Part shown: one piece after another, positions 14,075-34,319 of the stretch
Numbering within the stretch: position 1 is the first letter of the stretch
Layout of the letters: each line of letters starts with the position of its first letter
Origin: Escherichia phage phAPEC8
Sequence record: NC_020079.1
Direction: 5' to 3' (one strand)
DNA: 64,000 nucleotides
The notes under the pieces: generated by a model
The model's database searches: none
Seen by the model: only the letters and a program-made list of their open reading frames with translations
What the model was told of the DNA's origin: nothing
Position numbers and translations under genes: made by a program

Positions 14075-14083
14075 GGAGATAAT

Positions 14084-15828: not shown

Positions 15829-15829
15829 C

Positions 15830-16929: not shown

Positions 16930-19805
16930 TGTCAAGAGTTAAGCACAATATTGACAACACGTTTCAGTTGATTGAAGGGTTGGTTCAGTTTTTGGAAAGA
17001 AATACTGGGCTTACCATAGATCCTACGGTTCAGCATTACATTATCAACCCACAAAACGTATTGGCGAACAACAGACACTTTATTAACTGGACAGCGCAGG
17101 AAGGGCAACCAAACGGTGACGCTACTACCGAAGGTCAATCTGTGCTTATCACTGGTTTTGCCTATGCATATTTGGCTACAGGGGATAAAAAATATCTTGA
17201 ATCTGCCGAGAAGTATTGGCAAGCCTATATAGATCACTTCTTCGGGGGCCAACCTATTCCTGATCCTCCGGCTAAATATCGTCCCAACTGGATCATCAAT
17301 GGTAAAGAACCACGTTTAGCACATTACCCTCTCACAGATGATGGGTATCCTACGCACGGTGGGTTCAAAGGTAGCATGATGACTTGGATTAACGGAAGGA
17401 CTGTTATTCCTAAAGGTGCACCGCATTGGGGGGAATACTTAGATAAAGCTTGGTTTGCTTTCAATGGCAATCTTGGTTGGAACTCCGTTAACGCAACAGT
17501 TTATGCAACTAACCCAGATGGTTCAACCAACTGGAAAGAATATGGAGATCAGTGGGACGTTGAATGGATTATAGACCGTCTAGGACGTAAAGTTGATTGG
17601 GATGGTAACATTTTATCTACTGGTCATAGCTTTGCAGAATATGGAACAGTACAACTTAAAAATGCTTCTGTGAACGGGGACTATAAATTCAACTACGCTA
17701 CATGCAATCCTGTAGAACACGGTGGATATCTGCTTAAGCGTAATGAGATGTGGCATAACCGTCCTGTAAACGTTCCGGTAGAGTTAGGCTATCAAGATAA
17801 TGCTTCCGATGCTGAAACGTGGTGGTGTGATGCAAACTACTTGATGTATCAGATCACAGGAGAGAGAAAATACTGGCTTTGCTGGCAATCTTCTTTATTG
17901 TTGTGTCAAGACTACTCAAACATCGATATGTTTGATAAATTCTTCCGTAGATCTACGACAGCAATAATTCCTTTTACAGATGGTATCTCGTATGATTACT
18001 CATACCCATCTACAGCAATACCTAAATATTCTCGTGACGAATTAGGATACACAGTAATTCGCCAAGATGTTTCAGCACAAACAACTCTAGAACAACAGGC
18101 AGTTTGGTTCAGAGTAGATCAGAATTCAAAACTGCGTATTGAGTTTCAAGGTGTAGATGATGCAGGGGAAGGTGTTCTTTTCCGTCCAGAGCTAGAATTA
18201 AGCAAAACTAAGAGTGAAACAGACACAGTGACATATCGTTGTGGCTTACCTCTTGGTGCAGCTAATATGACTAAGATGGATATACCTTTATCTAGTTTTA
18301 TGCGCACCGAACCTCCTGGAGGTGGTGTATATATTATTGCTGAACCTAGAATTATTGTTGACTGGGGAAGCAATACTGTGATACAATATAAATATGCAAC
18401 TGGTATTGCTGGGACAAATAGTGATCAGATAGTTTCTGCTAATATGGATTCAGATGGTGGTTTTACTGTTGGGTTTTGGTTAACACCAACTAAAACAGCC
18501 AATTTAAAATCTATTACGTATCGTTCATACGCAGATGATTTTAACATCACTATTACGGATTCCGCAGGTTGGAGATGGTGGGCCATGTTAGAAAAAACAA
18601 ATTCTGCATGGGTTACTAAAGCTTTAAGTCCTGCTGATTTCAAATTAAGCACTTGGCAACCCAATCATAACGACACAGAGACAAAACCTTCGTCAATAAA
18701 CCTGACTGCTGTTGATCAGATCAACATTGCATTGGATTCTGAACCTGCAAATGGCTTGACAGGGGCAATCGATTTTTATTGTGTTAACGATATCCCATCT
18801 TTGTATTCTTCAGCCGCTGGTGATGATTACACAATGTATTTCAGGGTTACAGTTTCATCTGAAAATCCTTATACAGCAAAACTTGGAGATTGTACAATAC
18901 TGGACTATAAACTTGACAGTTTGAATTATACTCCAGGAATCATTCCATTTTCCAATATTAGTGATCCTAACACAGCATTATATGACGGTTGGCGTGGTAT
19001 TCCTTACCCAGGTTATCAATACCCATCCTTATATTGTTTTAAAGGGAGAGATATTGACTGGGTTCGTATGAACAACAGTATAGACTTTTTATATGATTCA
19101 CAAATGTGGTTTTATAATAAGTTTGCCCCTGTGATGCCTGGGCCAATGGCACAAGCTTATGTTTGGGATCGTTGGGATGCTCATAAATACGGAAACAAGA
19201 ATGAGTTCACAATGTATCATTGGAACGATAAAGCTTGGGATGGTTATGAAGCACGAGCATTCTTCTGTGCGTGTCATACAGTATACGAACTGAAGCAACG
19301 AGGAGCAGAAGTTCCTGAAAAACTTTTAACAGTTTGTAAAAACTGGATCAATTATCTGAAGTGGTTCCAGGATAACAACGAAGGAAGAACACCAACAATA
19401 TTTTATCCCAACGGAGAAGTGGCTGCGCCTGTAGATGACTTTACAAGTCACATGTCTGCGCTCTTTATGGCGGGATGTGCTATAATGGGGATGGCTGGAT
19501 ATGATTCAGAAATTCCTAACATTAAAATAGTAGCAGATCGCTGTTTTGAACTTATTCAGGAAAATTATATTGTTCTTGGTCCTAATCACGTTATGAATGG
19601 TTGTTGGAGTGCTGCTCCTAGACCAGACAGTGATAACGGAGTCTTCTTTGGCTTCCACGCCGGAGAGTTGTTACGTGGTTTTGGGTTGTATGCCTTATAC
19701 AAAAAACTTAATCCCCAAAATGCATTACCTGTTTTGGATTCGAGCAATATTCCTGCACTTACTGTTTTGACAATGGCAAACATTAGTGTGGACGTTACCG
19801 AGTAA
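16929..19805 (+). CDS. large tail-associated protein, possible glycan-degrading receptor-binding protein
   Basis: 958 aa; Trp/Tyr-rich segments (ITGFAYAYLATGDKKYLESAEKYWQAY, WWCDANYLMYQITGERKYW) reminiscent of alpha/alpha-barrel glycoside hydrolases; first of three consecutive large tail genes. Confidence 0.35.
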   Translation: MSRVKHNIDNTFQLIEGLVQFLERNTGLTIDPTVQHYIINPQNVLANNRHFINWTAQEGQPNGDATTEGQSVLITGFAYAYLATGDKKYLESAEKYWQAYIDHFFGGQPIPDPPAKYRPNWIINGKEPRLAHYPLTDDGYPTHGGFKGSMMTWINGRTVIPKGAPHWGEYLDKAWFAFNGNLGWNSVNATVYATNPDGSTNWKEYGDQWDVEWIIDRLGRKVDWDGNILSTGHSFAEYGTVQLKNASVNGDYKFNYATCNPVEHGGYLLKRNEMWHNRPVNVPVELGYQDNASDAETWWCDANYLMYQITGERKYWLCWQSSLLLCQDYSNIDMFDKFFRRSTTAIIPFTDGISYDYSYPSTAIPKYSRDELGYTVIRQDVSAQTTLEQQAVWFRVDQNSKLRIEFQGVDDAGEGVLFRPELELSKTKSETDTVTYRCGLPLGAANMTKMDIPLSSFMRTEPPGGGVYIIAEPRIIVDWGSNTVIQYKYATGIAGTNSDQIVSANMDSDGGFTVGFWLTPTKTANLKSITYRSYADDFNITITDSAGWRWWAMLEKTNSAWVTKALSPADFKLSTWQPNHNDTETKPSSINLTAVDQINIALDSEPANGLTGAIDFYCVNDIPSLYSSAAGDDYTMYFRVTVSSENPYTAKLGDCTILDYKLDSLNYTPGIIPFSNISDPNTALYDGWRGIPYPGYQYPSLYCFKGRDIDWVRMNNSIDFLYDSQMWFYNKFAPVMPGPMAQAYVWDRWDAHKYGNKNEFTMYHWNDKAWDGYEARAFFCACHTVYELKQRGAEVPEKLLTVCKNWINYLKWFQDNNEGRTPTIFYPNGEVAAPVDDFTSHMSALFMAGCAIMGMAGYDSEIPNIKIVADRCFELIQENYIVLGPNHVMNGCWSAAPRPDSDNGVFFGFHAGELLRGFGLYALYKKLNPQNALPVLDSSNIPALTVLTMANISVDVTE

Positions 19806-19813
19806 GGGGTAAA

Positions 19814-21967
19814 ATGAAACAAGCTATATTTACTGTCACGCGAGACAAGAGAGTAAATGCGAGTTCATTTAACTACACGACTGTTGATGGAACAGCAGTC
19901 GCTGGTAGAGATTATATTGCAAAATCGGGAACACTTGTGTTCCCTGATGATGCTGATTCTGCTACCATTGTGGTTGAAGTATTTGAACGACCAAAGAACT
20001 CAATAGATCTTAACTTCTCCCTCCAAGTTTCAGGGATTAGTCAAAATAATATGATGGTTGAAACAACCATCAATTGTATTATAACTACTATCCAAGAAAA
20101 TACTACTCCAATAACTTGGACTACAAAAGACGTTAAAATGTTCTCTCCTATGTATTGGACAATAGATTCTCAAGCAACGGAAAGTTGTTCTATTGTATCT
20201 CATGGAGACTCTTTTACTGCAAGATTTGTAAACAGAACAACAGCAGGTTTGGCAGGGGTTATCTGGAGCACAGTTGACAAATATGACCATAAAGGTGTTG
20301 GGTATTTACCCCACACAGATTTAAGTTCAGAGAAACTTTGGTTTAAAATGGAAATTAGTCAAAACATGCCAGGTTTTAAAGAAGAACCTTTGGTGCCGAC
20401 TTTGACTGTAACTCTCCTGGATAAAAGTGTTCATTATGTCAGTTTAGGATTCTACGCTTCAGATATTTCAGAAGATGGTAAAACAGCTACAATCAAGTTA
20501 GATTTTGGTAATATCTTTTCTGGCCCTAATAATGATATTCCTTTGGATATGAGTGCTGTAGATAATATTTTCTTCTCTTTGATTACAGCAAGGTATGAAG
20601 AAATAGAAGAGGTTGTACCTATTGACAGTCAAGAGGCTTGGTTTACTTTCACTCTTCTTGAACCTACTTCTGGTTACAGTATGATGAAAGTCAGCAACCT
20701 TGTCCAGCCTGAACATGATATTCGCATGTGCACATCTTATGATGATATGTATAACCTGACTCCAGAGAGAGTTATTTATAATACATATGCACTAGGTTAT
20801 CGTGGGATGATTAACCATTATAACGGAATGTCTCACTATTATGAGTTCTCATGGAATGGAACATCTTGGGCTTTAAATAAATCTGTTTTCCTGAATCCGG
20901 CTACAGAAGCTTGGCTTAACAGCTTTCATTCTATAGCAAACGAGAAGGGCTACACAATAATGAACTCTTTAAGTTTTGAATTGATGAGCACAGTTTGTCC
21001 TGTAGAATGGGTCCAGCATGATTGGAACGATGCTCTTGCAGCAACAGGGTATAAACCTCCTAGTTATGTGTTGTCTCCAACTATTGACGAAGGTATGGAA
21101 TATTTGCAAAATGTTATTAATAAAATAGCATCTATTTCTCAAGCTAACAATATTCCAGTCGTCATTCAAATTGGTGAACCTTGGTGGTGGTATAATACAG
21201 CAAGTAAAATGCCTTGCATATATGATTACACTACCAAACTGGCATTCAACACAGAAACAGGTTTATTTGCACAAGATGCAGGAACAATAGATAATTATAA
21301 AACAGGAACGCCGTTTGACGAATACTATGCATTTTTGTCTCGTAAACTAGGATTAAGAGTTACAAAGTTTGCAACAGATCCCAGAGCAACTTACCCAGGA
21401 GCCAAGGTAACATTGCTTCCGTTCTTGCCATCAATTATCGGCAACGGTTTGATGGAGAAAGTTAACTTTCCGTCTGATTACTACATTCCTGAAACTTTTG
21501 ATTTTTACTGTTCAGAGTGTTACGACTGGCTTCTGGAAGGTAAAATGATGAAAGCATTCGATGCAATTACCATACCACATGAAAAATTAGGTTTTGAATA
21601 TTCTGATATTCACTATCTTTCGGGTTTTGTTCCAGATGCTACTCTTGCACCTTTGTATGGCTTCGATCCTGAATCAAACTACCGAACGTATCTTTGGAAA
21701 ATGATTATAGGCAATATAGTATTGAACGCCAACAAGTTTGACGGACTTACACAATATATATGGGCCTATCCTCAAATAATGCACGATTCCATCACGGTAG
21801 TTAATTCTCAATCTCAAGTTTTCTATATGGGTAACGTGCCTTTGAACGTTTATTTACAGGATATCACTCTTAAACAGGTAAATGTTGAGATTGCCACCAT
21901 AAGTGGAATTACATTAGCCACTAAATCTGGAGAAGATTTGGTAACAACACAAAAATTTTATATATAG
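19814..21967 (+). CDS. tail fibre/spike protein with N-terminal Calx-beta-like segment (putative)
   Basis: 717 aa; N-terminus TTVDGTAVAGRDYIAKSGTLVFPDDADSATIVVEVFERP resembles a Calx-beta motif; lies within the receptor-binding gene block. Confidence 0.35.
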   Translation: MKQAIFTVTRDKRVNASSFNYTTVDGTAVAGRDYIAKSGTLVFPDDADSATIVVEVFERPKNSIDLNFSLQVSGISQNNMMVETTINCIITTIQENTTPITWTTKDVKMFSPMYWTIDSQATESCSIVSHGDSFTARFVNRTTAGLAGVIWSTVDKYDHKGVGYLPHTDLSSEKLWFKMEISQNMPGFKEEPLVPTLTVTLLDKSVHYVSLGFYASDISEDGKTATIKLDFGNIFSGPNNDIPLDMSAVDNIFFSLITARYEEIEEVVPIDSQEAWFTFTLLEPTSGYSMMKVSNLVQPEHDIRMCTSYDDMYNLTPERVIYNTYALGYRGMINHYNGMSHYYEFSWNGTSWALNKSVFLNPATEAWLNSFHSIANEKGYTIMNSLSFELMSTVCPVEWVQHDWNDALAATGYKPPSYVLSPTIDEGMEYLQNVINKIASISQANNIPVVIQIGEPWWWYNTASKMPCIYDYTTKLAFNTETGLFAQDAGTIDNYKTGTPFDEYYAFLSRKLGLRVTKFATDPRATYPGAKVTLLPFLPSIIGNGLMEKVNFPSDYYIPETFDFYCSECYDWLLEGKMMKAFDAITIPHEKLGFEYSDIHYLSGFVPDATLAPLYGFDPESNYRTYLWKMIIGNIVLNANKFDGLTQYIWAYPQIMHDSITVVNSQSQVFYMGNVPLNVYLQDITLKQVNVEIATISGITLATKSGEDLVTTQKFYI

Positions 21968-21975
21968 GAGTAAAA

Positions 21976-24741
21976 ATGTCAACTACAATTACTAATTTAC
22001 CCGAAACATCAAAAGTTAATGGTTCTGATTACCTGGTTTTAGATCAACCTGATAAGACTGTTAAAAGCACAGTTTCCAACTTTCTTACTGACACTGGGGT
22101 GGTTTTAGCCACCCAGCTAAAAGATACTTCTGGAGCTACCAAGTATCCAGAACTTCAAATGTCACGTTGGAGAGATGAAGGTGATCCTAGAGGATGGGGA
22201 GCAGTAGGTGACGGAGCAACAGACGATACTAATGCCATAACACAGCTTCTTGCTGCTATGCCTGATGGATGGATTGTTGATGGGCGTAATCTCACTTTCA
22301 AGGTTACAACACTACCAGATATAAGCAAGTTTAAAAACGCTGCTTTTGTTTACGAGCGTATTGTTGGACAACCCCTTACTTACGTATCTGAGGGTTTCTT
22401 TGATGGAAATCTGACAAAAATTACGGATACACCATTTTACAATGCTTGGACGCAAGATAAGACGTTTGTTTATGACAATGTTATATATGCACCATTTATG
22501 GCTGGCGAACGTCATGGTGTACAAAACCTCCATGTAGCGTGGGTTAAATCAGGAGATGATGGACAAACTTGGTCTATGCCAGAATGGTTAACTCCAATTC
22601 ATCCTGATTATAATGCCTCTTCAGCAAACAAAGTTAACTATCATTGTATGAGTATGGGTGTATGTGGTAATCGCTTATATGCGGTGATCGAAACCCGTTA
22701 CTTATCTAACATGCGATTGAAGAAAGCAGAACTTTGGTCACGTCCAATGCCTTATTATAGAAGGCCAACTGGAGGCATAACAATTAGTTCTGGGTCTACT
22801 ACAGCGACAATTGTTTTAGAAAAGCATGGTCTTAAAGTTGGAGATGCTGTTAACTTTTCCAATTCAGGTGCAACTGGCGTATCTGGAAATATGACTGTTG
22901 CATCTGTAATTAACAAGGATACATTTACTGTTACATTAGCGAGTGCTGCCACATCTAATATAGATAATACAGGAACTACTTGGCATTTTGGAACACGTTT
23001 CTGGGATAGCCCTTGGGAAATTACAGAATTACCAGATGTTGCCTATTCTACTAATGCAGATTTATGTGTTACAGAAACCCATAGTTTTACAGTTATAGAT
23101 GATGATAATTACACTTTTGCTGTTGGTTATCACAATGGTGATGTTTCCCCAAGAAGATTAGGTATTTTGTATTTCAATAATGCTTACTCTGACCCAAGTT
23201 CTTTTACTCGTAGAACAATTAGTCAAGAATATGCTGACAATGCAGCAGAACCCTGCATTAAATATTATGATGGAATTTTATATTTAACTACCAGGGGTAC
23301 TTCAACTTCTGCTGCTGGTTCTACATTAGCAATGAGTACCGACCTTGGAGAAAACTGGAACTACTTAAGATTCCCTAACAACGTTCATCATACAAACTTA
23401 CCATTTGCAAAAGTTGGTAACTACCTTTATATCTTTGGTACAGAACGTTCATTCGGAGAATGGGAAGGAGAAGAACTAGATAATAGATATAAAGGCACGT
23501 ATCCTCGAACGTTTATGTGCAAGATTAATGTATCTTCATGGCCTACATCTTTATCCGATGTTCAATGGTTTAATATCACTGATCAGATGTATCAAGGGCA
23601 TATTGTTAATTCTGCATGTGGTGTTGGTTCGGTATGTGTTAAAGATGGTTGGTTATATTATATCTTTGGAGGCGAAGATTTCTTATCTCCTTGGTCTATT
23701 GGGGATAATAGTAAAAAATTATGGTACAAGCATGATGGTCATCCAGCCGATTTATATAGTTATAGACTAAAGATTACCGAACATGATTTTGTATCACGTG
23801 ATTTCAAATATGGAGCTACGCCAAACCGTACATTGCCTGTATCTATGGGTACAGATGGGGTAAGGCATGTCTCAGCCCCTGTAACTTTTGATAATGATGT
23901 ACAAGTATACTCTTTAACAGTTACTGGCCTTGAGCATGATGGGACACAACAATCTGCCGTTAGAATAAAATTAGATGGTGATTATGGGGTTGTTGCAAAA
24001 AATGTCCCAATAAAAAATCCTTCTAAACAGCGACTAATCCTATGTGGAGGAGAAACTCCTTACGTTACTGATGGATCGCTATTACAACTATATGGTTCAA
24101 ACCATACGTATCCAAACAGAGCAGTTTTATATGCCCCAGGAGGAGCATATACCCAAAATAATTTCATGCCGTATTTAGATGGACAAGTTGCATTAGGCGG
24201 TGCGTCTAACAGATGGTCAGAAGTGTACGCATCTACAGGAACCATTAATACTTCAGATGGAACATTAAAAACTAAACCTACAGAGATTGAAGATATTTTA
24301 CTGAAAGCATGGGAAGATATTCATGTAATCTCTTACCAATGGCTTAGTGCTGTCGCGGAGAAAGGAGATTCTGCGCGTATTCATTTTGGTGTTATAGCTC
24401 AAGATGTAAGAGATATTCTGATTAATTATGGCTTAATGGATGAAAATAGCACTGATTGTAAGTATGCTTTTCTGTGTTATGATGAATACCCTGCTATGTA
24501 CGATAGTGTTGTTACGGGACAAAAAGAAATCCCTTTATTTGATGATGAAGGGAATGTTGTAATTGATGAAGAAGGTAATCCAGTAACAATCGTAGAAGAT
24601 GTTGTAGAAACTATCGAAATAATTCCAGCAGGATCGCGATGGGGTATCCGCGCTGACCAAATGTTTTTTATTGAGATGGCTTATCAACGTAAAAAGTTAA
24701 AAGCTCTTGAAGAAAGACTTGCAACCCTGGAAAGTAAATAA
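21976..24741 (+). CDS. endosialidase-like tailspike with C-terminal intramolecular chaperone (peptidase S74-type)
   Basis: 921 aa; WGAVGDGATDDTNAIT motif, Asp-box repeats (SGDDGQTW, STDLGENW), and a C-terminus (HFGVIAQDV...SRWGIRADQMFFIEMAYQRKKLKALEERLATLESK) typical of the self-cleaving chaperone domain of endosialidases and L-shaped fibres. Confidence 0.6.
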   Translation: MSTTITNLPETSKVNGSDYLVLDQPDKTVKSTVSNFLTDTGVVLATQLKDTSGATKYPELQMSRWRDEGDPRGWGAVGDGATDDTNAITQLLAAMPDGWIVDGRNLTFKVTTLPDISKFKNAAFVYERIVGQPLTYVSEGFFDGNLTKITDTPFYNAWTQDKTFVYDNVIYAPFMAGERHGVQNLHVAWVKSGDDGQTWSMPEWLTPIHPDYNASSANKVNYHCMSMGVCGNRLYAVIETRYLSNMRLKKAELWSRPMPYYRRPTGGITISSGSTTATIVLEKHGLKVGDAVNFSNSGATGVSGNMTVASVINKDTFTVTLASAATSNIDNTGTTWHFGTRFWDSPWEITELPDVAYSTNADLCVTETHSFTVIDDDNYTFAVGYHNGDVSPRRLGILYFNNAYSDPSSFTRRTISQEYADNAAEPCIKYYDGILYLTTRGTSTSAAGSTLAMSTDLGENWNYLRFPNNVHHTNLPFAKVGNYLYIFGTERSFGEWEGEELDNRYKGTYPRTFMCKINVSSWPTSLSDVQWFNITDQMYQGHIVNSACGVGSVCVKDGWLYYIFGGEDFLSPWSIGDNSKKLWYKHDGHPADLYSYRLKITEHDFVSRDFKYGATPNRTLPVSMGTDGVRHVSAPVTFDNDVQVYSLTVTGLEHDGTQQSAVRIKLDGDYGVVAKNVPIKNPSKQRLILCGGETPYVTDGSLLQLYGSNHTYPNRAVLYAPGGAYTQNNFMPYLDGQVALGGASNRWSEVYASTGTINTSDGTLKTKPTEIEDILLKAWEDIHVISYQWLSAVAEKGDSARIHFGVIAQDVRDILINYGLMDENSTDCKYAFLCYDEYPAMYDSVVTGQKEIPLFDDEGNVVIDEEGNPVTIVEDVVETIEIIPAGSRWGIRADQMFFIEMAYQRKKLKALEERLATLESK

Positions 24742-24789
24742 TACAGCTTAGGTGGTATTTCAATCTTTATATCCCACTTAGAGGTACTC

Positions 24790-25053
24790 ATGGCTAAAGA
24801 GAAAAATGGTTTTAAAAAATTTATTCGCGGAATGTTCTGCACTTACCCCGGCAACGGGGTAAGCTCTACGAAAGTCTGGAACGCTGTAGGCATGTCTGTT
24901 ATGACAGGCATGTTTATCTTTTTAGGAATAGAAAAAGAAATTCCTGAATGGATGGGCTGGGCTTTTGTTTTCATGATAACCCCTTCTCGCCTCATGAAAA
25001 ATCTTATTGATTTACGTTGGGGCAGATCACAATCTACCAAAGAGGATGACTAA
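24790..25053 (+). CDS. small two-TM membrane protein (holin-like topology)
   Basis: 87 aa; two hydrophobic helices (VWNAVGMSVMTGMFIFLGI, WMGWAFVFMITP) and a charged C-terminus; embedded between tailspike and baseplate genes. Confidence 0.4.
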   Translation: MAKEKNGFKKFIRGMFCTYPGNGVSSTKVWNAVGMSVMTGMFIFLGIEKEIPEWMGWAFVFMITPSRLMKNLIDLRWGRSQSTKEDD

Positions 25054-26540
25054 TGGACGAATATGGTTTGACAGATGCGGGATTTGTAATCCCGACTTTT
25101 GACGATGTTTTAAACAACTACATGACAGCAGTAAAAAACACATTTGGTGCAGATGCAGCCACTTCGGAAGACACTGTGATCGGGCAACTGTTTAGAATAA
25201 TTGCATACACAGATTACACATTGTGGGAAGGTATGCAAGGTGTTTATAATACTCAAACACTGGATGGTGCAGAAGGTATTTATCTTGACGAAATCTTTTC
25301 TAAACGCGGTTTCTATCGAGCAGGGGCAGCAGCAAGTACAGGTTATGCATATGTTAAGAGCAATAACAAAGCAGCTTGGACTTATGAGCTAGGCACGGAT
25401 ATTTACTTCAACTCTGATAGTGATATGAACTACTATGTTAGCACACCAACTATGTTGAATGCTAAGATTGCAGCTTATCAAATCTCTTGTGCTAATGCAA
25501 CTGCTACAGGTGTTCCAAATATTACTTTTTATGCACAAAGTGCGGTAGATGGAGGACTAAACAGTAAAACACTTGCACCTGGTTCTTCTACATTTATAAC
25601 CGATCTTGAAACTTTTATCAAGGCAAATTTAACAGAAGCTGATCGTAGTCTTGTATTTTCTGATTCAGGTAACTTATCAATTGGTTTTACTTCTTTAACT
25701 AGTGATACTCCAGTGGGACTGGTAACTCCTATTAAATTTTATGCTAGTGTTCCGGTTGGAACCAAGTGGAGTGAGATTCCGGTAGTTGCAGCAGAGAAAG
25801 GATACAACCCTGTTGGCGTGGAGTCTATTACAGGGATATCTTCTACCTTTACAGGTTATCTTGACAGTGGTAACTTTTATTCATTTTCTCCTGGTCGGGA
25901 TGTTGAGACAGACGCAGAATTCCGCTCTCGTTTCAATGACAACGTTGATGAAGCTAACGCAGGGACACGAGCAGCTATTGTGAAAGCTCTGCTACTTACA
26001 GATGGTGTTACTAAGGTGAAGATTTATGATAACCCTACATTACATGATCAAGAACATGCTCCGGCTATGACTTTCCAGACTATAGTTTATGGAGGAAGTG
26101 CTGAAGAAGTTGCTGAAGTTATTTACAAAACTAAACCAATCAACAGTTTGACACATGGAACAACCAACATAACTGTTACAACGGAAGACGGAGGACAAGA
26201 AATTATTCGTTTTTCTCCTGGTGCTTCTGCTACGTATTCCGTAAAACTTGTTTATCAAACTGTCAACGGAACAACTTTAAGTGGAACAGAAAAACAAAAC
26301 ATTGTAGAAGCTTTACAAAACCTGCAAGCTTACTTTGAATTAGGTTCTTCAGTAACGAACGATCAAATCAAAGGTGTTATTTATGCAGCACTTGCTTTTG
26401 GACGCTTGACTTCTCTTCGTGTTTATGTTAAACTTAATACTGAGGATGACAGTAAATATACAGAGAATAATATAGTTCCTGCTTATAATGTTGTCCCTTC
26501 TTTTGACCTTGATAACATTTCTTACGAGTATGGAGTGTAA
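25053..26540 (+). CDS. baseplate J-like protein (putative)
   Basis: 495-aa ORF followed by a 209-aa ORF, a fibre and a fibre-assembly gene, mirroring the P2 J-I-H-G order; N-terminal pattern loosely similar to gpJ. Confidence 0.4.
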   Translation: MDEYGLTDAGFVIPTFDDVLNNYMTAVKNTFGADAATSEDTVIGQLFRIIAYTDYTLWEGMQGVYNTQTLDGAEGIYLDEIFSKRGFYRAGAAASTGYAYVKSNNKAAWTYELGTDIYFNSDSDMNYYVSTPTMLNAKIAAYQISCANATATGVPNITFYAQSAVDGGLNSKTLAPGSSTFITDLETFIKANLTEADRSLVFSDSGNLSIGFTSLTSDTPVGLVTPIKFYASVPVGTKWSEIPVVAAEKGYNPVGVESITGISSTFTGYLDSGNFYSFSPGRDVETDAEFRSRFNDNVDEANAGTRAAIVKALLLTDGVTKVKIYDNPTLHDQEHAPAMTFQTIVYGGSAEEVAEVIYKTKPINSLTHGTTNITVTTEDGGQEIIRFSPGASATYSVKLVYQTVNGTTLSGTEKQNIVEALQNLQAYFELGSSVTNDQIKGVIYAALAFGRLTSLRVYVKLNTEDDSKYTENNIVPAYNVVPSFDLDNISYEYGV

Positions 26541-26542
26541 AA

Positions 26543-27172
26543 ATGGCAGTGAGTGTTGACCATGTAACAACTTGGGCCAGTATCAATGAAGACGTTAAAA
26601 ACCTTCTGATTGAAGATTTTAAATCTTCTCCTAACATTGTCAAGCTCCTCTACATCGTATCCAGTGAAAAGCAAAAGATAGATCAGGCAATGATCTATCT
26701 TGCTAAACACCGCTTGATCTCCACAGCCACAGGCAAATACCTAGATATCTTAGGAGAAGAAATGGGGATCGAACGTAATGGCTCTGATGATGAAGAGTAT
26801 AGAACAATATTAAAAATCAGGGCTTACCGCGTAGCCTCATCGGGGACTCGTGGTGACATAATTGATATCTTCGCCCGTTTCACAGGAACAGAGCGTGAAA
26901 CGCTTAATACTTACGTAGGTTTGAATAAAACCTTTGATGTGTTTTTCTACAACCTGTGTCTTCAATCTGATCAAGCTTTAGAGCAGTTGCTAAGTGTTTT
27001 CCCTATTATTAGTAGCTACCGTCTTGGAGCAAAAGCAGGATCAGCTTTTGGTTTTAGTTCTTATTATGCTACCAAACCGCCTCATGGTATTGGTGGTTTA
27101 GGTTCCCTGTACATGGAATCTACTGGGGATGAAACAGGACGCATGTGTACGCTTCTCAAGCAAATAGATTAA
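26543..27172 (+). CDS. baseplate I-like protein (putative)
   Basis: 209-aa ORF between the J-like gene and the tail fibre gene; synteny only. Confidence 0.3.
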   Translation: MAVSVDHVTTWASINEDVKNLLIEDFKSSPNIVKLLYIVSSEKQKIDQAMIYLAKHRLISTATGKYLDILGEEMGIERNGSDDEEYRTILKIRAYRVASSGTRGDIIDIFARFTGTERETLNTYVGLNKTFDVFFYNLCLQSDQALEQLLSVFPIISSYRLGAKAGSAFGFSSYYATKPPHGIGGLGSLYMESTGDETGRMCTLLKQID

Positions 27173-27181
27173 GGAGTTTAA

Positions 27182-28243
27182 ATGGCGAAGCCAATATATT
27201 ATCCTGACTGGGCTACACAAACTGTAACGCTCCCAGGAACTTTAAACACAAACAAAATTAGACCTAAAGAAACCATCCGCACAATTGGTATGGATTATGG
27301 TCAAATCATGACTTGCGAAGAGATGAACTGGATTCTTAATAATATCGGTTTATGGATTCGCTATTTGGTGGATGATTTTCTTCCAACTTTACCTAATACC
27401 TACTTGCCTTTAGTGGGAACTAAGATTACAATGGCAGGTGATGCTACTGGTGAGGCCACTTGGAACGGTAACAAAGAAGTTACTTTATCTATCCAAGTTC
27501 AAGATAACAGTCATAATCACTTGTCAGCAAACATTACAGATGCTACTAGTTCAACAGTAACACCAAACGTGTTGGTAAAACGTGATGCGGGTGGTGCTAT
27601 TTATGGTGGCGATGTTTATGTTAACGGTACTTCCACAACAGATCCTGCAACACTGTTCTTCAAAAACTTTGCAGGACAAACAAATGGTGAGATTTCTGCC
27701 GAGTATCAAAGCGGAGGTCAGCTTTACATCTATCGTAGAAATCCTAGCACAGGTAGTGTATCGGCAGGTGTTCGTTTATATGATGCAGGTTATGTTCTAA
27801 TAGATAATCCAAGATCGAACAGTGGACAAGATACTTCTAACGGAAATGCTTTAGTTCGTTTAGATTATCTGAACTCTCGTTTGACTTCCCTTCAGAACAC
27901 ATTGCAGACGAATATTAACACTGTTCAAAACAACTTGAATAATGTTAACAACAACCTCTCTTCTCGTATAAACAATGTAGAAAGTAATCATCAAAGTCAG
28001 ATTACAAATAACTACAACTATGCTAACGGAACCTTTGTAAGAGATATTCGTTATACTAGCCAAGGTGTGTATTATCCACCAGGGAACGAGGTTTCTTGGA
28101 CTTATATCTGTTCTTCTGGTTATGTTCTTTCTGGTATTATCGTACAGGAAACAGGACGTAGCTCTGCGGATAACATCGGTGGGGTTTACTTCAAACGCCT
28201 CCAGCGCAACGTTAACGGAAACTGGTACGATATTGGAGGCTAA
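27182..28243 (+). CDS. tail fibre protein (short)
   Basis: 353 aa; Asn/Ser/Thr-rich central region with heptad-like NNLNNVNNNLSSRINNVESN stretch; immediately followed by a tail-fibre-assembly gene. Confidence 0.5.
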   Translation: MAKPIYYPDWATQTVTLPGTLNTNKIRPKETIRTIGMDYGQIMTCEEMNWILNNIGLWIRYLVDDFLPTLPNTYLPLVGTKITMAGDATGEATWNGNKEVTLSIQVQDNSHNHLSANITDATSSTVTPNVLVKRDAGGAIYGGDVYVNGTSTTDPATLFFKNFAGQTNGEISAEYQSGGQLYIYRRNPSTGSVSAGVRLYDAGYVLIDNPRSNSGQDTSNGNALVRLDYLNSRLTSLQNTLQTNINTVQNNLNNVNNNLSSRINNVESNHQSQITNNYNYANGTFVRDIRYTSQGVYYPPGNEVSWTYICSSGYVLSGIIVQETGRSSADNIGGVYFKRLQRNVNGNWYDIGG

Positions 28244-28789
28244 ATGATATTTACAAACTTTAAAAAATATATTCCTGAAGACCCTGAACTAAAAGAATTG
28301 GTAGAAGCAGAGAACATTCTTTTTCTTCGTTGCGATCAAGGTTACGACTGGTATGATTTACGTAGCACAGAATTCAATAACGATAAAATGAAAGTCGTTT
28401 TTGATGATCAAAATCGTATTGTGTTTTGGAATACTGATCCTACACTACTTTGCCCTGAAGATCTTTCTATAGCACAAGTAGATTTTAATATAGATACTTT
28501 TGAGGATATTAGGAACAAGGTTCTGGATTTAGAAACCTTAACTCTTAAGGATAAAGAGTATTCCCGTGAAGAGTTGATGACACAAGCTAGTGCAAAAATT
28601 CGCTCTTTACAAGAAACAGCGGTAGCACTTATAACACCTTTACAGTATGCTAAAGATTTAGAAATGGCTACTGAAGACGAATTAGCTTATCTTAAAAATC
28701 TTCAAGTTTATGTAGTTAAACTAAATCGTGTTCCGCTTCAAAAAGACTATCCTTACGCTATAGATTGGCCTACATTACCGACAGAATAA
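28244..28789 (+). CDS. tail fibre assembly protein (Tfa/gpG-like)
   Basis: 181 aa; C-terminus AYLKNLQVYVVKLNRVPLQKDYPYAIDWPTLPTE matches the conserved Tfa ending (W..YR..LNRVD...P.I.WP..P). Confidence 0.6.
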   Translation: MIFTNFKKYIPEDPELKELVEAENILFLRCDQGYDWYDLRSTEFNNDKMKVVFDDQNRIVFWNTDPTLLCPEDLSIAQVDFNIDTFEDIRNKVLDLETLTLKDKEYSREELMTQASAKIRSLQETAVALITPLQYAKDLEMATEDELAYLKNLQVYVVKLNRVPLQKDYPYAIDWPTLPTE

Positions 28790-28798
28790 GGGATCACT

Positions 28799-29134
28799 AT
28801 GGAATTTCAAGAAGCATGGGGACTTGCAAAGGATGCAATAATCCCTTTAATCGGAGTCATCTGGTTCTTTTTCAAACAAAAAATGGATAAATTCGGCTCT
28901 GATCTTGAGGAAATGGAGGAGAAAAGTCGAGAGCTAGAGAAGAAGTTGGTCTTTGTTGAATCAACTTACGCAACTAAAGCCGAACTTACCCAGATGCTAA
29001 ATCAAATTAACTCTACATTAATGGCAAATAACAACACCCTTGAGCAAAAAATTGAAAAGATTATGGACCTCAAGAATGCGACTATCCAAATGATGCTAGA
29101 TGACATAGTTAAACGTACACAGAATAAGGGGTAA
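28799..29134 (+). CDS. small protein with N-terminal TM helix and coiled coil
   Basis: 111 aa; hydrophobic IIPLIGVIWFFF followed by charged helical region; function unknown. Confidence 0.4.
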   Translation: MEFQEAWGLAKDAIIPLIGVIWFFFKQKMDKFGSDLEEMEEKSRELEKKLVFVESTYATKAELTQMLNQINSTLMANNNTLEQKIEKIMDLKNATIQMMLDDIVKRTQNKG

Positions 29135-29137
29135 TTA

Positions 29138-32100
29138 ATGGCAACATTCCCAACATATCCAGCAACGTCTCTCGAACAGGGCGTAGACCTGGTTATTTTC
29201 TCATCTAACCAACTCCATGATGTTATTAATGGAAGTGCTACAGAGAGTATTGAAACAGAATCAGGGTTGATACCAACCCTGAGAAAAGCCCTTGTTGACA
29301 ACTTTTTCTTTAAAAGTCCATTAGATTGGGCGCAAGGCACAAACGAAACAGTTTTTAACCAACTTCGTTATTTCCAGAACGGGGTGTTGAGTGGTTATTA
29401 CTATGCGCCTAACGCTACACTGGTAAACCCAATTCCTATGCAAGGGACTCCAGTAGGAGATAACAACTGGGTATTGTGGGGACTGAAGACAGAACAACTA
29501 GCAACAGAAGTCACCCCTTGGGTATATTCTGGTGCAACTGGTTATGAAACAGTAATCAGTCCTCCCTACATCTTTGATAGTGCTATTGTTACGATCAATG
29601 GTGTTATTCAGGTTCTGGGAGAAGCTTTCCGCATAGAAGATAGTAAAATCATCTTATCTGAACCTTTGGGACACGATCCTGCAACAGGACTGCCAAACAA
29701 ACTTTTTGCCTATATTGGTAAAATCGTAGCTTCCGCAGATACAGATCCTAACTTAGAAAACCGTCTTGTCAGTTTAGAAACAAAAACTGAAGAACTGACA
29801 GAAAGCATGGATAAAGTACCTTTACAAACTATTGCTCGTAAATACGGTTTGTTGGATGATGAAGTAGCTTACGCAACAGCGGGTCAATCGTTAACAGGGA
29901 TTAAAGCTCTGTATGATCCAGTAGCACAATCTTCCTACACATTGCCTCCTAACATCACAGGGACTTTAACATCCTTGTCTGTTTCTGGAGTAATGACTTA
30001 TTCTGGCGGATCTGTAGATCTTTCTGCATTGGCTGTTGAACGTGGACAGTTTGTTCATTTGCCTACAAGCTTTGGTAATAACGTAACTCTGACAGCTAAA
30101 AATCAGACGATTGGACGTGGTGCTGGTCGTTATCGTTGGGCTGGGAGTTTACCAAAAAGTATTTTGGCCTCAGATACATTGGAGACAAGCGGTGGATTAG
30201 GTCCAAATGCATGGGTTCTGACCAATACAGAAGGACTGTTAACCCCTCGTGGTGGAACATACAACGATTTATTCGATGTTGTCTACTTATCAGAATTTGC
30301 TAACAACACAACAACATATACCACACCAGAAGCAGCTTTCCAAGCGGCACTGTTAGCAGCAAAAGCTTCGAAAAGCAAGATTCTCGATGCTTACGGTTGC
30401 GATATGACTTTCACGACAAGCTCTTTTGATATTCAAGGTATCACTTTGCGTGGGGGTGTGTTCCGTGGTCAACGCGACTATCGTGTGCAAAATGCTACAG
30501 TAGAAGGCACAACTTTCCGTAACTCTCGTGTTATGTATTGGGGTGGTGCTGTGCGCATGTTCGATTGTTTGTGGGACGGTGCTCCTCGCGCAGGTCAAGT
30601 TGGTAGCTTGGTATTCCAAGGCAACCCAATATCAGGTACTTTTGAAATTGATAACTGTACTTTTAAAAACGGGTTGTATGGCATCCTTCAACAAGGAACA
30701 GGGGAACCAGTAACACGTGGTGTCTTCCGTAACCTTACCTTCATGGACATGCAAGGTGATGCAATAGAACTGAACGTCATCAATAAACATTATGACGATG
30801 GTTGTGTGATTGAGAATATTTACCTGTCTAATATCGATGGGACTAACGCTCCTATTCCTCTGTCCAACTGGGGTATCGGTATCGGTGTAGCTGGTAAAGG
30901 ACCATATGGTTACGGAATCCCTGATGATCAATATTGCAAGAATATTACAATTCGTAACGTTTTTGCAAAACGTTGTCGTCAGATTGTCCACGTAGAAGTT
31001 GGTCGTAATATCTCTATCGAAAACATTCATGGCGATCCAGACCAGACCGTATCTGTTGGGACAGGTTTGGCAACTGGCGCAGTTGTAATGTATGGAAGTA
31101 AAGATTTTACGATTGACGGTGTTTACGGAGAGCCTAAAACAGACGGTAGCACACTTGCAAGTAATATCCGTATGATTTATTTGGAGTGGGGAACTAACGC
31201 AGTTCTGGACGAAGAGGGTAATCCGGTAGTTCCGGCACAGGGTAGACCTTCAAACCCATGCTTTAACTATTCTGTTCGTAATATTCACACCAAAACTGGG
31301 CGTGTTTTTGCAGGAGTTTCCGCTGGGCCAGGTTATGAAAACAGAGTTAGCTTTGAAAATATTCGTTGCGCTGCATTGCAGTTATTCGGTATAGCTTCTT
31401 GGCTTTCAATGTCTAACATCACCTGTAATATCTTCGATTGTGTTGGTCAACCTGAATCTGGTCCAGGGACATTTTATGATGGATTCTTCCGTAGAGAAAA
31501 ATCTGTTCTTGAAATGGTTAACGTGAACTGTTACCCAGATGGCAAGACGATGGTTACTGGTCGTCCACAGTGGAGCCGTTGCCGTTACTCGGATATTCAT
31601 CGTGTCAATTGTAATGTTGAAGCTAATATGTATACCAATATCGCAGGTGGTATTGGAGCTATTGTAGGGACAACGGGCAAAGTTTATTACTTAGAGCCTA
31701 ATCCTAGTCGAAACATTGATGGAATGCATTTCCCAACAGGGAAAGAGTTTGACAAAGGTGATATGATAGTCAAGGCGGATAATACGTTCTTCCTTGTAAC
31801 AACAAGTGGGGCATATATTCCAGATATCCCAGCTTTCGGTATTCGAGCTACACAGGCAGGAGATACCTTCCTGACACAGAACTTGACTCCTAACGGGACA
31901 GCAACAAATGCTTCTTGGTTGTATCATTACCCTCTGTCAGCAGGGACACGTATCCGTATTCCTGGCGCTGGTGTAGGTGGAGCAGATTTGGACACAGTTA
32001 TTACTCGTGCACCTTATCAAGATAATGATACGTGGACTAACCCAGTTAAAATAGACATTGCAGATCCAATTGTAACGCCTACAAGTGCTGGAGTTAGAAT

Positions 32101-32191
32101 TAAAACCATACCTAATGATTCCAGTAATGTTTCTGTAGGTAATACTGCGGTTATTCGCCCAACGCCAGTAGTAGATGTGCCAACAACCTAA
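29138..32191 (+). CDS. tailspike protein with right-handed beta-helix (pectate-lyase-like) domain
   Basis: 1017 aa; repeated beta-helix rungs (NCTFKNGLYGILQQG..., NLTFMDMQGDAIELNV..., NITIRNVFAKRC..., NISIENIHGD...) typical of polysaccharide depolymerase tailspikes. Confidence 0.6.
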   Translation: MATFPTYPATSLEQGVDLVIFSSNQLHDVINGSATESIETESGLIPTLRKALVDNFFFKSPLDWAQGTNETVFNQLRYFQNGVLSGYYYAPNATLVNPIPMQGTPVGDNNWVLWGLKTEQLATEVTPWVYSGATGYETVISPPYIFDSAIVTINGVIQVLGEAFRIEDSKIILSEPLGHDPATGLPNKLFAYIGKIVASADTDPNLENRLVSLETKTEELTESMDKVPLQTIARKYGLLDDEVAYATAGQSLTGIKALYDPVAQSSYTLPPNITGTLTSLSVSGVMTYSGGSVDLSALAVERGQFVHLPTSFGNNVTLTAKNQTIGRGAGRYRWAGSLPKSILASDTLETSGGLGPNAWVLTNTEGLLTPRGGTYNDLFDVVYLSEFANNTTTYTTPEAAFQAALLAAKASKSKILDAYGCDMTFTTSSFDIQGITLRGGVFRGQRDYRVQNATVEGTTFRNSRVMYWGGAVRMFDCLWDGAPRAGQVGSLVFQGNPISGTFEIDNCTFKNGLYGILQQGTGEPVTRGVFRNLTFMDMQGDAIELNVINKHYDDGCVIENIYLSNIDGTNAPIPLSNWGIGIGVAGKGPYGYGIPDDQYCKNITIRNVFAKRCRQIVHVEVGRNISIENIHGDPDQTVSVGTGLATGAVVMYGSKDFTIDGVYGEPKTDGSTLASNIRMIYLEWGTNAVLDEEGNPVVPAQGRPSNPCFNYSVRNIHTKTGRVFAGVSAGPGYENRVSFENIRCAALQLFGIASWLSMSNITCNIFDCVGQPESGPGTFYDGFFRREKSVLEMVNVNCYPDGKTMVTGRPQWSRCRYSDIHRVNCNVEANMYTNIAGGIGAIVGTTGKVYYLEPNPSRNIDGMHFPTGKEFDKGDMIVKADNTFFLVTTSGAYIPDIPAFGIRATQAGDTFLTQNLTPNGTATNASWLYHYPLSAGTRIRIPGAGVGGADLDTVITRAPYQDNDTWTNPVKIDIADPIVTPTSAGVRIKTIPNDSSNVSVGNTAVIRPTPVVDVPTT

Positions 32192-32197
32192 TGGAAT

Positions 32198-32217
32198 AGA
32201 GGGGGGATTCCCCCTCT
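32198..32217 (+). terminator. stem-loop after tailspike gene (probable terminator)
   Basis: 8-bp stem AGAGGGGG/CCCCCTCT with GATT loop; downstream tract pyrimidine-rich but not a clean U-run. Confidence 0.4.
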
Positions 32218-32253
32218 TCTTCCAATAGAATGGTCTAATGATAGGAGAGATAA

Positions 32254-34278
32254 ATGAATTTAACAAGACCTAATAGTGCGATAGCCGATCTGGTAGAAGC
32301 TACTTATCGAAAACGTCGCAGCTTTGAGGCAGGTTTTACATTACGTAATTCCCGTGAAGTTTTGCTGTTAGCAGCAGAAGGGAATTATTACCAATGGAAA
32401 GGAACTTTTCCTAAAGTTGTTCCAGCAAACTCTACGCCAGCCACCACAGGTGGTATTTCTTCCCTTGCATGGCAAAGTGTTGGGACCGCTGATGATATAG
32501 CAATTATCAATGCCAAGTTTACGGCAATGCAGCAACAGATTGATGATCTGTCGGAAACAATACCTGAAGCTGGTAAATCGGCTTATCAGATCGCACTTGA
32601 TAATGGTTTTGTTGGAACAGAAGCACAATGGCTTGCTTCTTTGAAAGGGGATACTGGTGCTCAACTTAATATTAAAGGATCATTAGCAAGCACTAGTGAA
32701 CTACCATCCACAGGTAACGTTGCAGGGGATGGTTATATCGTAGGTGATGTAATCTACGCTTGGGATGGTTCTGTTTGGAAACTTATTTCTTCTCTTGGGC
32801 CAGAAGGTAAATCAGCTTACGAGGTATGGTTGGCAGATGGTAATACAGGATCTGTTTATGATTTTCTTACCTCTATAAAAGGTGATAAAGGTGATGTTGG
32901 TCCTACAGGGCCACAGGGAGCACCTGGTGTTAACGCCAACGGTTTTGATTATCGTGGGGATTTGCCTTCTACAAGTAACTTACCACAACCTAACTCTGAA
33001 AACGTAAGCCAAGCTTATTCTATCAATGGTAATCTTTATGTCTCTAATGGGACAGCTTGGGTCAACATGGGTAATATTGTTGGTCCTCAAGGTCCACAAG
33101 GTGAGGCAGGTAAAGACGGTCTTGATGGAACAGATGGAGATGAAGGGAAATCTGCATATCAAAGTTGGCTGGATGCTGGTAATGAAGGGACAGAAGTAGA
33201 TTTTATTGCCTCACTTAAAGGTCCAAAAGGAGACAAGGGTGATCAAGGAGAGCGAGGTCCACAAGGTGAACTAGGTCCACAAGGACCAGTGGGTGCAACA
33301 GGATCAGGCTTAGAGATTATCGGGGTTCTGAACAGTGAAGCTGAACTTCCTCCTACTGGAGAAGTAGGTGATGCATATAAAATTAATAATGATTTGTATG
33401 TTTGGATTCAAGATGCTACGGAATGGATGAATGTTGGCAGTCTTGGAGGAACATCAATTACAGCTAAAGGTCATGTTCCGAACAGTGAAGCTCTCCCTGT
33501 TTATAATAACTATGGCGATGCCTACTTAACTGAAGACACCAGTAATCTTTACATCTATACCTACGATCAAGACACCAATTCCGCATCTTTTGTTGACATG
33601 GGAAGTATTAAAGGCGACAAAGGTGAAAAAGGGGATAAAGGGGATAAGGGTGATCCTGGAACAAATGGAACCAACGGTACTGATGGGACCAACGGTAAGG
33701 ACGGCGCACAGTGGTTTGTAGCAACAACTAATCCAGTCGCAGGAGACGGTGTTATCAATGATTACGCCTTCAATACTACCACTGGAGCAGTGTTTAAGAA
33801 AACAGATTCTTCTACGTGGACACTTATAGGAACTCTTCCTAGTATACCAGAAGCCCCTCAAGACGGCTTGACGTATGGTCGTTCTGATGGAAACTGGATC
33901 GAAATATCAGGATCAGATCCTACAGAAGCTATAACACCAACTAGAGTTACAGCAGGTTTCATGGAACTTGAAACAACTACTGCCAACTCTGGAGCATCTT
34001 GGACTCCTTCTGGAACTTCCAATATGTATGTTGTTACAGTAACTGATGCTCTGACAGTTGGAGCATGGCCTGGTGTCACTGGCTCTACAAAACCTAAAGC
34101 GTTTTCAGCAATGATTTATTTGATTCAAGATACAACGGGACACACGGTTACACTAGATGCGTCTTATGGAGCACTAAATGATACAGAAATAGCAACTACT
34201 GCTAACGCAGTAACAATTTTGCAATTAACGTATCCTGGTGTGGGTGATATCGTGGACATGGTTGTTGTAACACGATAA
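32254..34278 (+). CDS. collagen-like tail fibre protein with phage-fibre repeats
   Basis: 674 aa; three copies of K-SAY-x-(A/W)L-x-GFVGTE/GNTGS...(A/T)SLKG motif and several Gly-X-Y runs (GDKGEKGDKGDKGDPGTNGTNGTDGTNGKDG). Confidence 0.65.
   Translation: MNLTRPNSAIADLVEATYRKRRSFEAGFTLRNSREVLLLAAEGNYYQWKGTFPKVVPANSTPATTGGISSLAWQSVGTADDIAIINAKFTAMQQQIDDLSETIPEAGKSAYQIALDNGFVGTEAQWLASLKGDTGAQLNIKGSLASTSELPSTGNVAGDGYIVGDVIYAWDGSVWKLISSLGPEGKSAYEVWLADGNTGSVYDFLTSIKGDKGDVGPTGPQGAPGVNANGFDYRGDLPSTSNLPQPNSENVSQAYSINGNLYVSNGTAWVNMGNIVGPQGPQGEAGKDGLDGTDGDEGKSAYQSWLDAGNEGTEVDFIASLKGPKGDKGDQGERGPQGELGPQGPVGATGSGLEIIGVLNSEAELPPTGEVGDAYKINNDLYVWIQDATEWMNVGSLGGTSITAKGHVPNSEALPVYNNYGDAYLTEDTSNLYIYTYDQDTNSASFVDMGSIKGDKGEKGDKGDKGDPGTNGTNGTDGTNGKDGAQWFVATTNPVAGDGVINDYAFNTTTGAVFKKTDSSTWTLIGTLPSIPEAPQDGLTYGRSDGNWIEISGSDPTEAITPTRVTAGFMELETTTANSGASWTPSGTSNMYVVTVTDALTVGAWPGVTGSTKPKAFSAMIYLIQDTTGHTVTLDASYGALNDTEIATTANAVTILQLTYPGVGDIVDMVVVTR
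33613..33706 (+). repeat. collagen-like Gly-X-Y coding repeat tract
   Basis: Triplet-periodic GGN-NNN-NNN repeats encoding GDKGEKGDKGDKGDPGTNGTNGTDGTNGKDG within the fibre gene. Confidence 0.6.
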
Positions 34279-34281
34279 CAG

Positions 34282-34306: not shown

Positions 34307-34319
34307 ATGGAGGGTTTAA

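Follow-up and report, generated by a model that had tools for sequence, protein, structure and literature searches.

A probable holin of an uncharacterised family within the tail-fibre and baseplate block of Escherichia phage phAPEC8

Why should a gene for a small membrane protein sit between a tailspike gene and a baseplate gene, and could its product be the holin of the phage? The question is raised by a stretch of 64,000 nucleotides from Escherichia phage phAPEC8 (NC_020079.1; 'the window', with positions counted from its first letter), in which positions 24790..25053 of the plus strand encode a protein of 87 amino acids (aa) that an initial annotation, made from the letters alone, described as holin-like. 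The answer favored here, with a probability of about 0.6 on the evidence of sequence comparison, is that this protein is the hole-forming holin of the phage and belongs to an uncharacterised family. That it is a lysis membrane protein of one kind or another can be held with good confidence. Topology by itself is a weak argument for a holin, since the second transmembrane helix (TM2) is marginal and the layout is a generic one. The case is carried by homology to proteins that occupy the holin slot in lysis cassettes of other phages, together with the gene context of those proteins.

Relatives in the holin slot of lysis cassettes

The protein matches the PHROGs family phrog_1322 ('membrane protein') with an E-value of 2.6e-26, its residues 7-87 lying on profile positions 2-82 of 87. 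When a profile of 10 sequences of the rV5/phi92 type is run against 1.84 billion representatives with a cut-off of E <= 1e-3, 159 clusters (50% identity) of proteins of 70-160 aa are gathered. Their common pattern is ..L[IV]TD..G+[LV]SHTK[LF]W[SA]N[IV].., helix 1, a short loop, helix 2, ..SKF[LI]SL[KR][YW]G and a variable charged tail, with an extra N-terminal helix in some members. All 146 aligned members of this wider family match phrog_1322 and 9 of the 146 match Pfam PF10841 (DUF2644), precomputed matches to which are carried by many more of the family sequences. By its sequence, the window protein is a distant relative of DUF2644 and not a member by Pfam's rule. Its link to the members found in lysis cassettes is at the profile level. 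Comparison by hhalign of the rV5/phi92-type alignment with a 24-sequence alignment of SHTK-type, i.e. cassette-type, members gives a probability of 99.5% (E-value 3.8e-23, 78 columns), and plain tblastn with lysis-cassette members recovers PVP-SE1 gp42, 4MG and others. It is this homology, with the cross-phage gene context described next, that lends support to the holin-like function first proposed from the letters. Neither PHROGs nor Pfam assigns a function to the family, one UniRef entry names an Aeromonas member 'Holin', and no named family or solved relative of the window protein is returned by NCBIfam, Pfam, the PDB (by sequence) or Foldseek with an AlphaFold2 model.

A search with the SHTK pattern (the 24-sequence subset) supplied 79 IMG/VR loci usable for a survey of gene context. 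At least 34 of them have the family gene adjoining an endolysin gene, a lower bound given that endolysins were recognised by BLAST to 16 Pfam-verified sequences only; mostly the endolysin is directly upstream with a 4-bp overlap. The adjoining endolysins are of six unrelated types, M15_4/VanY, M15_3, Amidase_2, GH19, Phage_lysozyme and GH108. An rV5-like tail context is present in 15 of the 79. Downstream of the family gene, at least 20 of 61 distinct open reading frames (ORFs) match Rz-like spanin PHROGs. The coupling of one small membrane protein to six unrelated muralytic types is the classic holin signature.

Individual cassettes give the same arrangement in different settings. In one IMG/VR locus (L012) the order is a soluble GH108 endolysin, the family gene, an i-spanin with an N-terminal transmembrane domain (TMD) and coiled coil and, overlapping with it, a lipobox-bearing o-spanin. 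Ralstonia phage RS138 has a late activator, the endolysin ORF26, the family gene as ORF27 and an Rz-like spanin, ORF28. In Mu-like prophages of Pseudomonas, Aeromonas and Serratia, and in Pseudomonas phage Bise, the genes for GemA, Mor and a VanY/M15_4 endolysin are followed, with a 4-bp overlap, by the family gene, and in the Mu-like cassettes there then come a 166-aa spanin-like protein, a 93-aa TMD-plus-coiled-coil protein, a gp26-like protein, the gp27 TerS, TerL and portal. None of the 16 verified partner endolysins has an N-terminal uncharged run of 16 aa or more; being without an N-terminal hydrophobic stretch they are therefore expected to be cytoplasmic and to need a holin. In many of the cassettes, among them L012, L024, L036, L099 and that of RS138, there is no multi-helix membrane protein but the family protein, and as the sole such protein beside soluble endolysins it would be the holin by elimination. 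Hole formation by the window protein is what we infer from this, on the supposition that the diverged rV5/phi92-type members keep the role of the cassette members; since the partner endolysins are soluble, the holes would be large.

Longer family members are found in two other settings. In T4-like and other large phages, namely Acidovorax phage ACP17 (gp115; L104) and six further loci (L069, L073, L074, L076, L078 and L095), the family is represented by a three-TMD form whose gene is by itself, on the other strand, next to the DNA polymerase gene. Eleven near-identical IMG/VR contigs of ~120 kb (L083-L093), several of them from human microbiomes, have a member of 158-160 aa and no recognisable lysis or tail genes.

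The gene and its predicted membrane topology

The window is 97-99.6% identical to the Phapecoctavirus genomes ECO340P2, ASO2A and ESCO5 and 82.5% identical to phi92, relatives that are 150-kb myoviruses of the subfamily Stephanstirmvirinae. Its plus strand from 70 to 36995 is a presumed late structural operon, with a terminase fragment, portal, head, tail, baseplate and several tailspike genes, and the rest, on the minus strand, has replication and metabolism genes. The 87-aa ORF (24790..25053, +), ortholog of phi92 gp144, rV5 gp29 and PVP-SE1 gp42, starts with ATG, and a Shine-Dalgarno sequence, GAGG (24781..24784, +), can be read 5 nt before it; the same motif is annotated for gp144 in the phi92 record. 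By tblastn the protein is present in 370 phage records, from the Stephanstirmvirinae, all genera of the Vequintavirinae (named orthologs being rV5 gp29, PVP-SE1 gp42, CB7_35 and Mydo gp215) and the Aeromonas Plateaulakevirus. The ORF as first called is thus borne out by its ATG, its GAGG site, its phrog_1322 match and its distribution, all of which mark it as a real and old gene and not a chance ORF.

The neighbors too are as the initial annotation had them, an endosialidase-like tailspike on one side and a J-like baseplate gene on the other, the Pfam matches of both being clear. The upstream gene (21976..24741) encodes a 921-aa endosialidase tailspike (End_beta_propel, 3.6e-213, and Peptidase_S74) that ends in a C-terminal intramolecular chaperone domain. 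The downstream gene (25053..26540, +) encodes a Baseplate J-like wedge protein, the ortholog of phi92 gp145 (Pfam Baseplate_J, 4.3e-09; chain Phi92_gp145 of PDB entry 21vq, 2.2e-266). In the junction TAATG, the TAA of the 87-aa ORF shares an A with the ATG of the baseplate-J gene, an overlap from which translational coupling of the two genes is deduced.

Across the rV5/phi92-like phages the ortholog is always co-oriented within the tail-fibre/baseplate module, with the adjacent gene differing by subfamily. In the Stephanstirmvirinae it lies directly before the baseplate-J gene; the tailspike upstream is swapped among relatives and the conserved block begins at the small ORF. In the Vequintavirinae the order is a tail-fibre assembly gene, a gene for a 104-aa single-TMD coiled-coil protein, in several genera a gene for a protein of 152-157 aa, the ortholog and the last tail-fibre gene. 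The 152-157-aa protein, which is phrog_7451 and has four TMDs according to the PVP-SE1 record (PVP-SE1 gp43, L106; CB7_34, L008; and L049:3500-3970), is a third membrane protein, missing from the window and other Stephanstirmvirinae.

Inspection of the 87-aa ORF for a dual-start motif found none, Met15 having no Shine-Dalgarno sequence, and the N-terminus varies among relatives, with an 87-aa form (MAKEKNGFKKF...) and an 80-aa form (MRKF...). A scan for promoters and terminators around the gene, itself uninformative, gave no signal nearby. The terminator scan did record, inside the ORF, a 14-pair stem followed by a T-rich run (24886..24917, +) in the codons for VGMSVMTGMFI of the first transmembrane helix (TM1), probably a by-product of the repeated GM(S/T/F) coding.

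The protein begins with a segment of 28 residues (24790..24873) that has 6 K/R, is placed in the cytoplasm by charge count and ends in the family motif S25-x-T27-K28. TM1 follows as residues 29-47 (24874..24930; Kyte-Doolittle 1.65 in a 19-residue window; AlphaFold2 helix 26-48), and then a short acidic loop, EKEIPE (24931..24948), predicted to be periplasmic, at whose end is the invariant E53-W54. Residues 54-77 (24949..25020) form a second, marginal transmembrane or interfacial helix, kinked at P65 (AlphaFold2 helices 53-63 and 66-77) and ending in the conserved L-R-W-G, and the variable charged tail GRSQSTKEDD (25021..25050), delimited by charge count and the alignment of relatives, completes the protein. 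With the 146-sequence alignment AlphaFold2 returns a helical hairpin with its kink at Pro65 and a mean predicted local distance difference test score of 79.5 (core ~88). The 6 K/R before TM1, the acidic six-residue loop and the 5 K/R after TM2 lead, by the positive-inside rule, to an N-in/C-in topology, which is plausible. Of the two transmembrane helices that had been claimed, the first is clear and the AlphaFold2 hairpin agrees with the layout; the second segment is marginal. The C-terminal tail, RWGRSQSTKEDD, is charged as claimed, but with 3 basic and 3 acidic residues it is net neutral and not basic. Members of the wider family have a longer uncharged run in the second helix, of 16-21 residues followed by one Lys. 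In the rV5/phi92-type alignment three groups of residues are invariant or nearly so: S25, T27 and K28 ahead of TM1 (an SxTK motif that is SHTK across the wider family), E53-W54 where the second helix begins, and L75-R76-x-G78 behind that helix.

Lysis in this phage group and the competing assignments

A soluble T4-type lysozyme and Rz/Rz1 spanins are encoded outside the window. In the close relative ESCO5 the lysozyme is gp080, which is soluble and has no membrane protein encoded adjacent to it, from which it follows that the phage needs a holin, and the spanin genes are immediately upstream of TerL. Small ORFs immediately before the ESCO5 spanin genes (gp261-263) and next to either muralytic gene were considered as alternative holins; none has a TMD. 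The window itself has, at 49467..49988 on the minus strand, a gene for a SleB-like cell-wall hydrolase whose N-terminus resembles a signal peptide (MLIKNFVTVALLSLTAFTFTPVVAKA/EA) and which probably needs no holin for its export. With the SleB-like hydrolase signal-bearing and the T4-type lysozyme soluble, the phage would thus possess two muralytic enzymes, the one secreted and the other soluble. According to the Young laboratory, every confirmed holin is the product of a late gene (PMC9239132). The only small membrane proteins within the late operon of the window are the 87-aa protein, whose gene is inside the structural block 70..36995 and overlaps the baseplate-J start, and one of 111 aa considered below.

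Published suggestions for the holin of this group diverge. For rV5 no holin homolog was found and gp129 was guessed (PMC3606486), and the CB7 paper, which describes the lysis genes as scattered across the rV5-like group, guessed a 65-aa protein beside SleB (PMC7344957). The BME3 paper, on a phage of a sister genus, reports no TMD proteins near the endolysins, and its Table S1 has two candidates: an 81-aa ortholog of the protein considered here, directly upstream of the baseplate wedge gene and listed as 'Membrane protein/ holin', and a 68-aa protein adjoining TerC and labelled 'Holin' (PMC12210895). The holin idea for the ortholog was therefore already voiced in 2025, on topology alone.

Comparison with established systems cuts both ways. 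Class II holins, e.g. the phage 21 S protein, are resembled in small size, in a predicted hairpin with both ends cytoplasmic, in a charged C-terminal tail, in belonging to a presumed late operon and, for family members, in lying between endolysin and spanin genes. The 87-aa protein differs from them in having no similarity to any named Pfam or NCBIfam holin family, in its short second helix and net neutral tail, and in that no dual-start motif was seen. T4 provides the closer parallel for gene position. There the tail-fibre block closes with genes 37/38 and, immediately after them on the same strand, the holin gene t, a long way from the endolysin gene e. Like all rV5-like phages, this large virulent myovirus has its lysis genes dispersed over the genome. 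The location that the initial annotation thought atypical thus has a precedent. Because T4 gene t is unlinked from its endolysin gene, linkage to lysis genes is typical for holins but not obligatory. T4 holin T is otherwise different, with 218 aa, one TMD, a large periplasmic domain and no homology to the 87-aa protein.

A number of points weigh against the holin assignment. Some concern the family. In 30 of the 79 surveyed loci neither an endolysin nor the rV5-like tail context was recognised; in the T4-like phage ACP17 the family gene stands alone beside the DNA polymerase gene; identity between the window protein and cassette members is only ~20-30%; neither the window protein nor a single one of the 10 sequences of the rV5/phi92 type is matched by Pfam, PF10841 included, at E-values up to 10; and a literature search found no paper mentioning DUF2644. 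Others concern the protein. In the second stretch, M55-S66, the uncharged run between E53 and R67 is only 13 residues long and the Kyte-Doolittle value never exceeds 1.0 (19-residue window), the tail is net neutral whereas many holins have a net basic one, and published TMD predictions for orthologs conflict, with none for rV5 gp29, one for PVP-SE1 gp42 and topology II for BME3 (PMC12210895), the calls of none or one being the adverse ones. The remainder concern the place of the gene. It adjoins no lysis gene in this genome and so lacks the linkage usual for holins, the lysozyme being ~56 kb and the spanins ~26 kb away (distances in ESCO5) and the SleB-like gene, inside the window, at ~24 kb. 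Being found constantly within the tail module of all rV5/phi92-like phages, the gene could serve the tail or have some other function, the ESCO5 GenBank record labels the ortholog 'structural protein' (basis not stated), and in the Vequintavirinae the ortholog is accompanied in the tail module by one or two further membrane proteins. Lastly, another holin candidate is encoded in the window (57973..58194, -) beside a TerC-like gene (56917..57891): a protein of 73 aa that has two TMDs of strong hydrophobicity and whose BME3 counterpart is the one labelled 'Holin'.

This 73-aa protein is relevant to the competing assignment that fares best, namely that the 87-aa protein is a lysis accessory, an antiholin or a timing or regulatory membrane protein working with some other holin. 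An accessory would share the same association with lysis cassettes, another small membrane ORF does lie between the endolysin and the family gene in two loci (L037 and L042), the conserved SxTK and LRWG at the cytoplasmic face suit protein-protein contact as well as hole formation, and two candidates are labelled in the BME3 table (PMC12210895). The many cassettes with no other multi-helix membrane protein nevertheless need some holin, and the 73-aa protein is encoded in an early/middle minus-strand block and confined to the Stephanstirmvirinae (130 records), whereas the 87-aa family spans the whole rV5-like supergroup. An accessory role alone is, all told, unlikely, if well short of negligible.

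A part in tail or baseplate morphogenesis, as membrane anchor, chaperone or minor virion component, would account directly for a gene that is always within the tail-fibre/baseplate module (in ~370 phage genomes), coupled to the baseplate-J gene in the Stephanstirmvirinae and just upstream of a tail-fibre gene in the Vequintavirinae, and would agree with the ESCO5 label. The existence of homologs in Mu-like and other phages, far from tail genes, tells against it, and the exact neighbor varies by subfamily, so no specific structural partner is conserved. Virion data are also pertinent, the presence of the protein in virions having been named at the outset as what would overturn a holin assignment. 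Tandem mass spectrometry of CB7 confirmed CB7_23-31, 36 and 37, leaving the membrane proteins CB7_33-35 and the tail-fibre assembly protein unconfirmed. For rV5, gp29 is not named among the proteins detected by mass spectrometry in the main text, nor in the mass-spectrometry flags of Table S3; of the separate rV5 mass-spectrometry table (footer total 19 proteins), parts 1 and 4 were covered. In the PDB no chain matches phi92 gp144 or the family profile; entry 21vq, of the phi92 baseplate, holds gp145 and gp146, the latter matched at 5.9e-121 by the wedge proteins of the window (25053..27172), for which the gp145 match was given above. The ortholog was thus not detected in the CB7 virion proteome, in the covered parts of the rV5 one or in the solved baseplate entry. 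Absence is consistent across the three sources, though it is negative evidence, small hydrophobic proteins being easily missed. A morphogenetic role is judged improbable.

The initial annotation had also raised the possibility of a pinholin, which would depolarise the membrane through small holes and so activate an endolysin that is secreted or tethered to the membrane. In their low hydrophobicity and high content of Gly, Ala, Ser and Thr the family helices recall pinholin and signal-anchor-release (SAR) segments, and the SleB-like hydrolase with its signal-like sequence might be thought a suitable partner. The pinholin of the phage 21 type (S68) partners a SAR endolysin, whereas all 16 verified partner endolysins of this family are soluble with no N-terminal hydrophobic segment, from which a large-hole mode is deduced, and the phage's own soluble T4-type lysozyme needs large holes. 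The pinholin alternative is accordingly disfavored and has little probability.

Least probable is a superinfection-exclusion or immunity protein like T4 Imm, blocking incoming phage DNA at the inner membrane, for although Imm is similar in size (~83 aa) and two-helix layout, PHROGs places the family in the category 'moron, auxiliary metabolic gene and host takeover', and in ACP17 the family gene is beside the DNA polymerase gene where T4 carries imm, homology to Imm was rejected (hmmsearch with three family profiles, ~0 bits; hhalign 0.3%), the gene belongs to the presumed late structural operon and is coupled to a baseplate gene, where T4 Imm is early, it is conserved across subfamilies and not patchy as morons are, and the lysis-cassette context in other phages would be left unexplained.

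If the 87-aa protein is indeed the holin, lysis might proceed as follows. Translation of the protein would take place on the late structural mRNA, coupled to that of the baseplate-J gene immediately downstream, and the product would enter the inner membrane as an N-in/C-in helical hairpin. There it would build up harmlessly until it triggers and opens holes, which would collapse the membrane potential and give the soluble T4-type lysozyme access to the cell wall. Lysis would be finished by the secreted SleB-like hydrolase together with Rz/Rz1, the spanins whose genes immediately precede the terminase gene.

A possible partner protein and the meaning of the assignment

The other small membrane protein of the tail block, of 111 aa and the phi92 gp149 / rV5 gp31 type (28799..29134, +), has an N-terminal TMD and a cytoplasmic coiled coil. 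Its PHROG matches are phrog_15210 (4.3e-70), phrog_462 (5.7e-07) and the Rz-like phrog_739 (1.2e-3). The label 'lipoprotein', which its relatives bear in RefSeq, can be rejected, the protein having no cysteine. In each of the 24 rV5/phi92/Aeromonas loci examined, the 87-aa family occurs together with this protein or its relatives of the rV5 type (phrog_5345), and in 17 Mu-like cassettes a TMD-plus-coiled-coil protein of phrog_462 is encoded 2-3 genes downstream of the family gene, where Mu has gp25. With the 'releasin' gp25 (DUF2730) the 111-aa protein shares the N-terminal TMD, the cytoplasmic coiled coil and a size of ~100 aa; it differs in having no Pfam DUF2730 match and an hhalign probability to gp25 of 0.3%, that to the phrog_462-type proteins of the Mu-like cassettes being only 33%. 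A DUF2730 or releasin identity is thus unsupported by Pfam or hhalign, and what remains is a weak phrog_462 match and a shared architecture. The 111-aa protein may be a lysis accessory, and a shared origin of a two-gene lysis unit with Mu-like phages is no more than a lead. A bolder version, speculative and doubtful, would have the 87-aa and 111-aa proteins as remnants of an ancient lysis module that moved into the tail-fibre block of rV5/phi92-like phages and is shared with Mu-like phages as a holin and a releasin-like partner, with the coupling to baseplate-J tying holin dosage, and so the timing of lysis, to tail production.

Elsewhere in the window, the ORF at 55903..56415 on the minus strand has an internal start that gives a probable lipoprotein, MKKLALILIGCIFLTAC..., with a lipobox and a low-complexity, very basic C-terminal region rich in Ser, Gly and Asn.

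What is new here, relative to the earlier mention of the ortholog as a holin, is the membership in phrog_1322 and, distantly, of the DUF2644 group, together with the profile link to the holin-slot proteins of lysis cassettes, both read from sequence. Myoviruses of the rV5-like, PVP-SE1-like and phi92/phAPEC8-like groups are isolated in many places and find use in therapy and biocontrol, and their holin has never been identified, three genome papers saying so or guessing different genes. The assignment fills this gap; it leaves the understanding of lysis unchanged and would not surprise a specialist. If true, it would give a function to phrog_1322/DUF2644, a family with hundreds of sequence clusters annotated 'membrane protein' or 'hypothetical', and would extend to many Mu-like prophages of Pseudomonas, Aeromonas, Serratia and Ralstonia, in which family members occupy the holin slot. 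Should the two-protein version also prove true, it would define a new and widespread holin family, marked by its SHTK and LR(W/Y)G motifs at the cytoplasmic face, and a conserved two-protein lysis unit.

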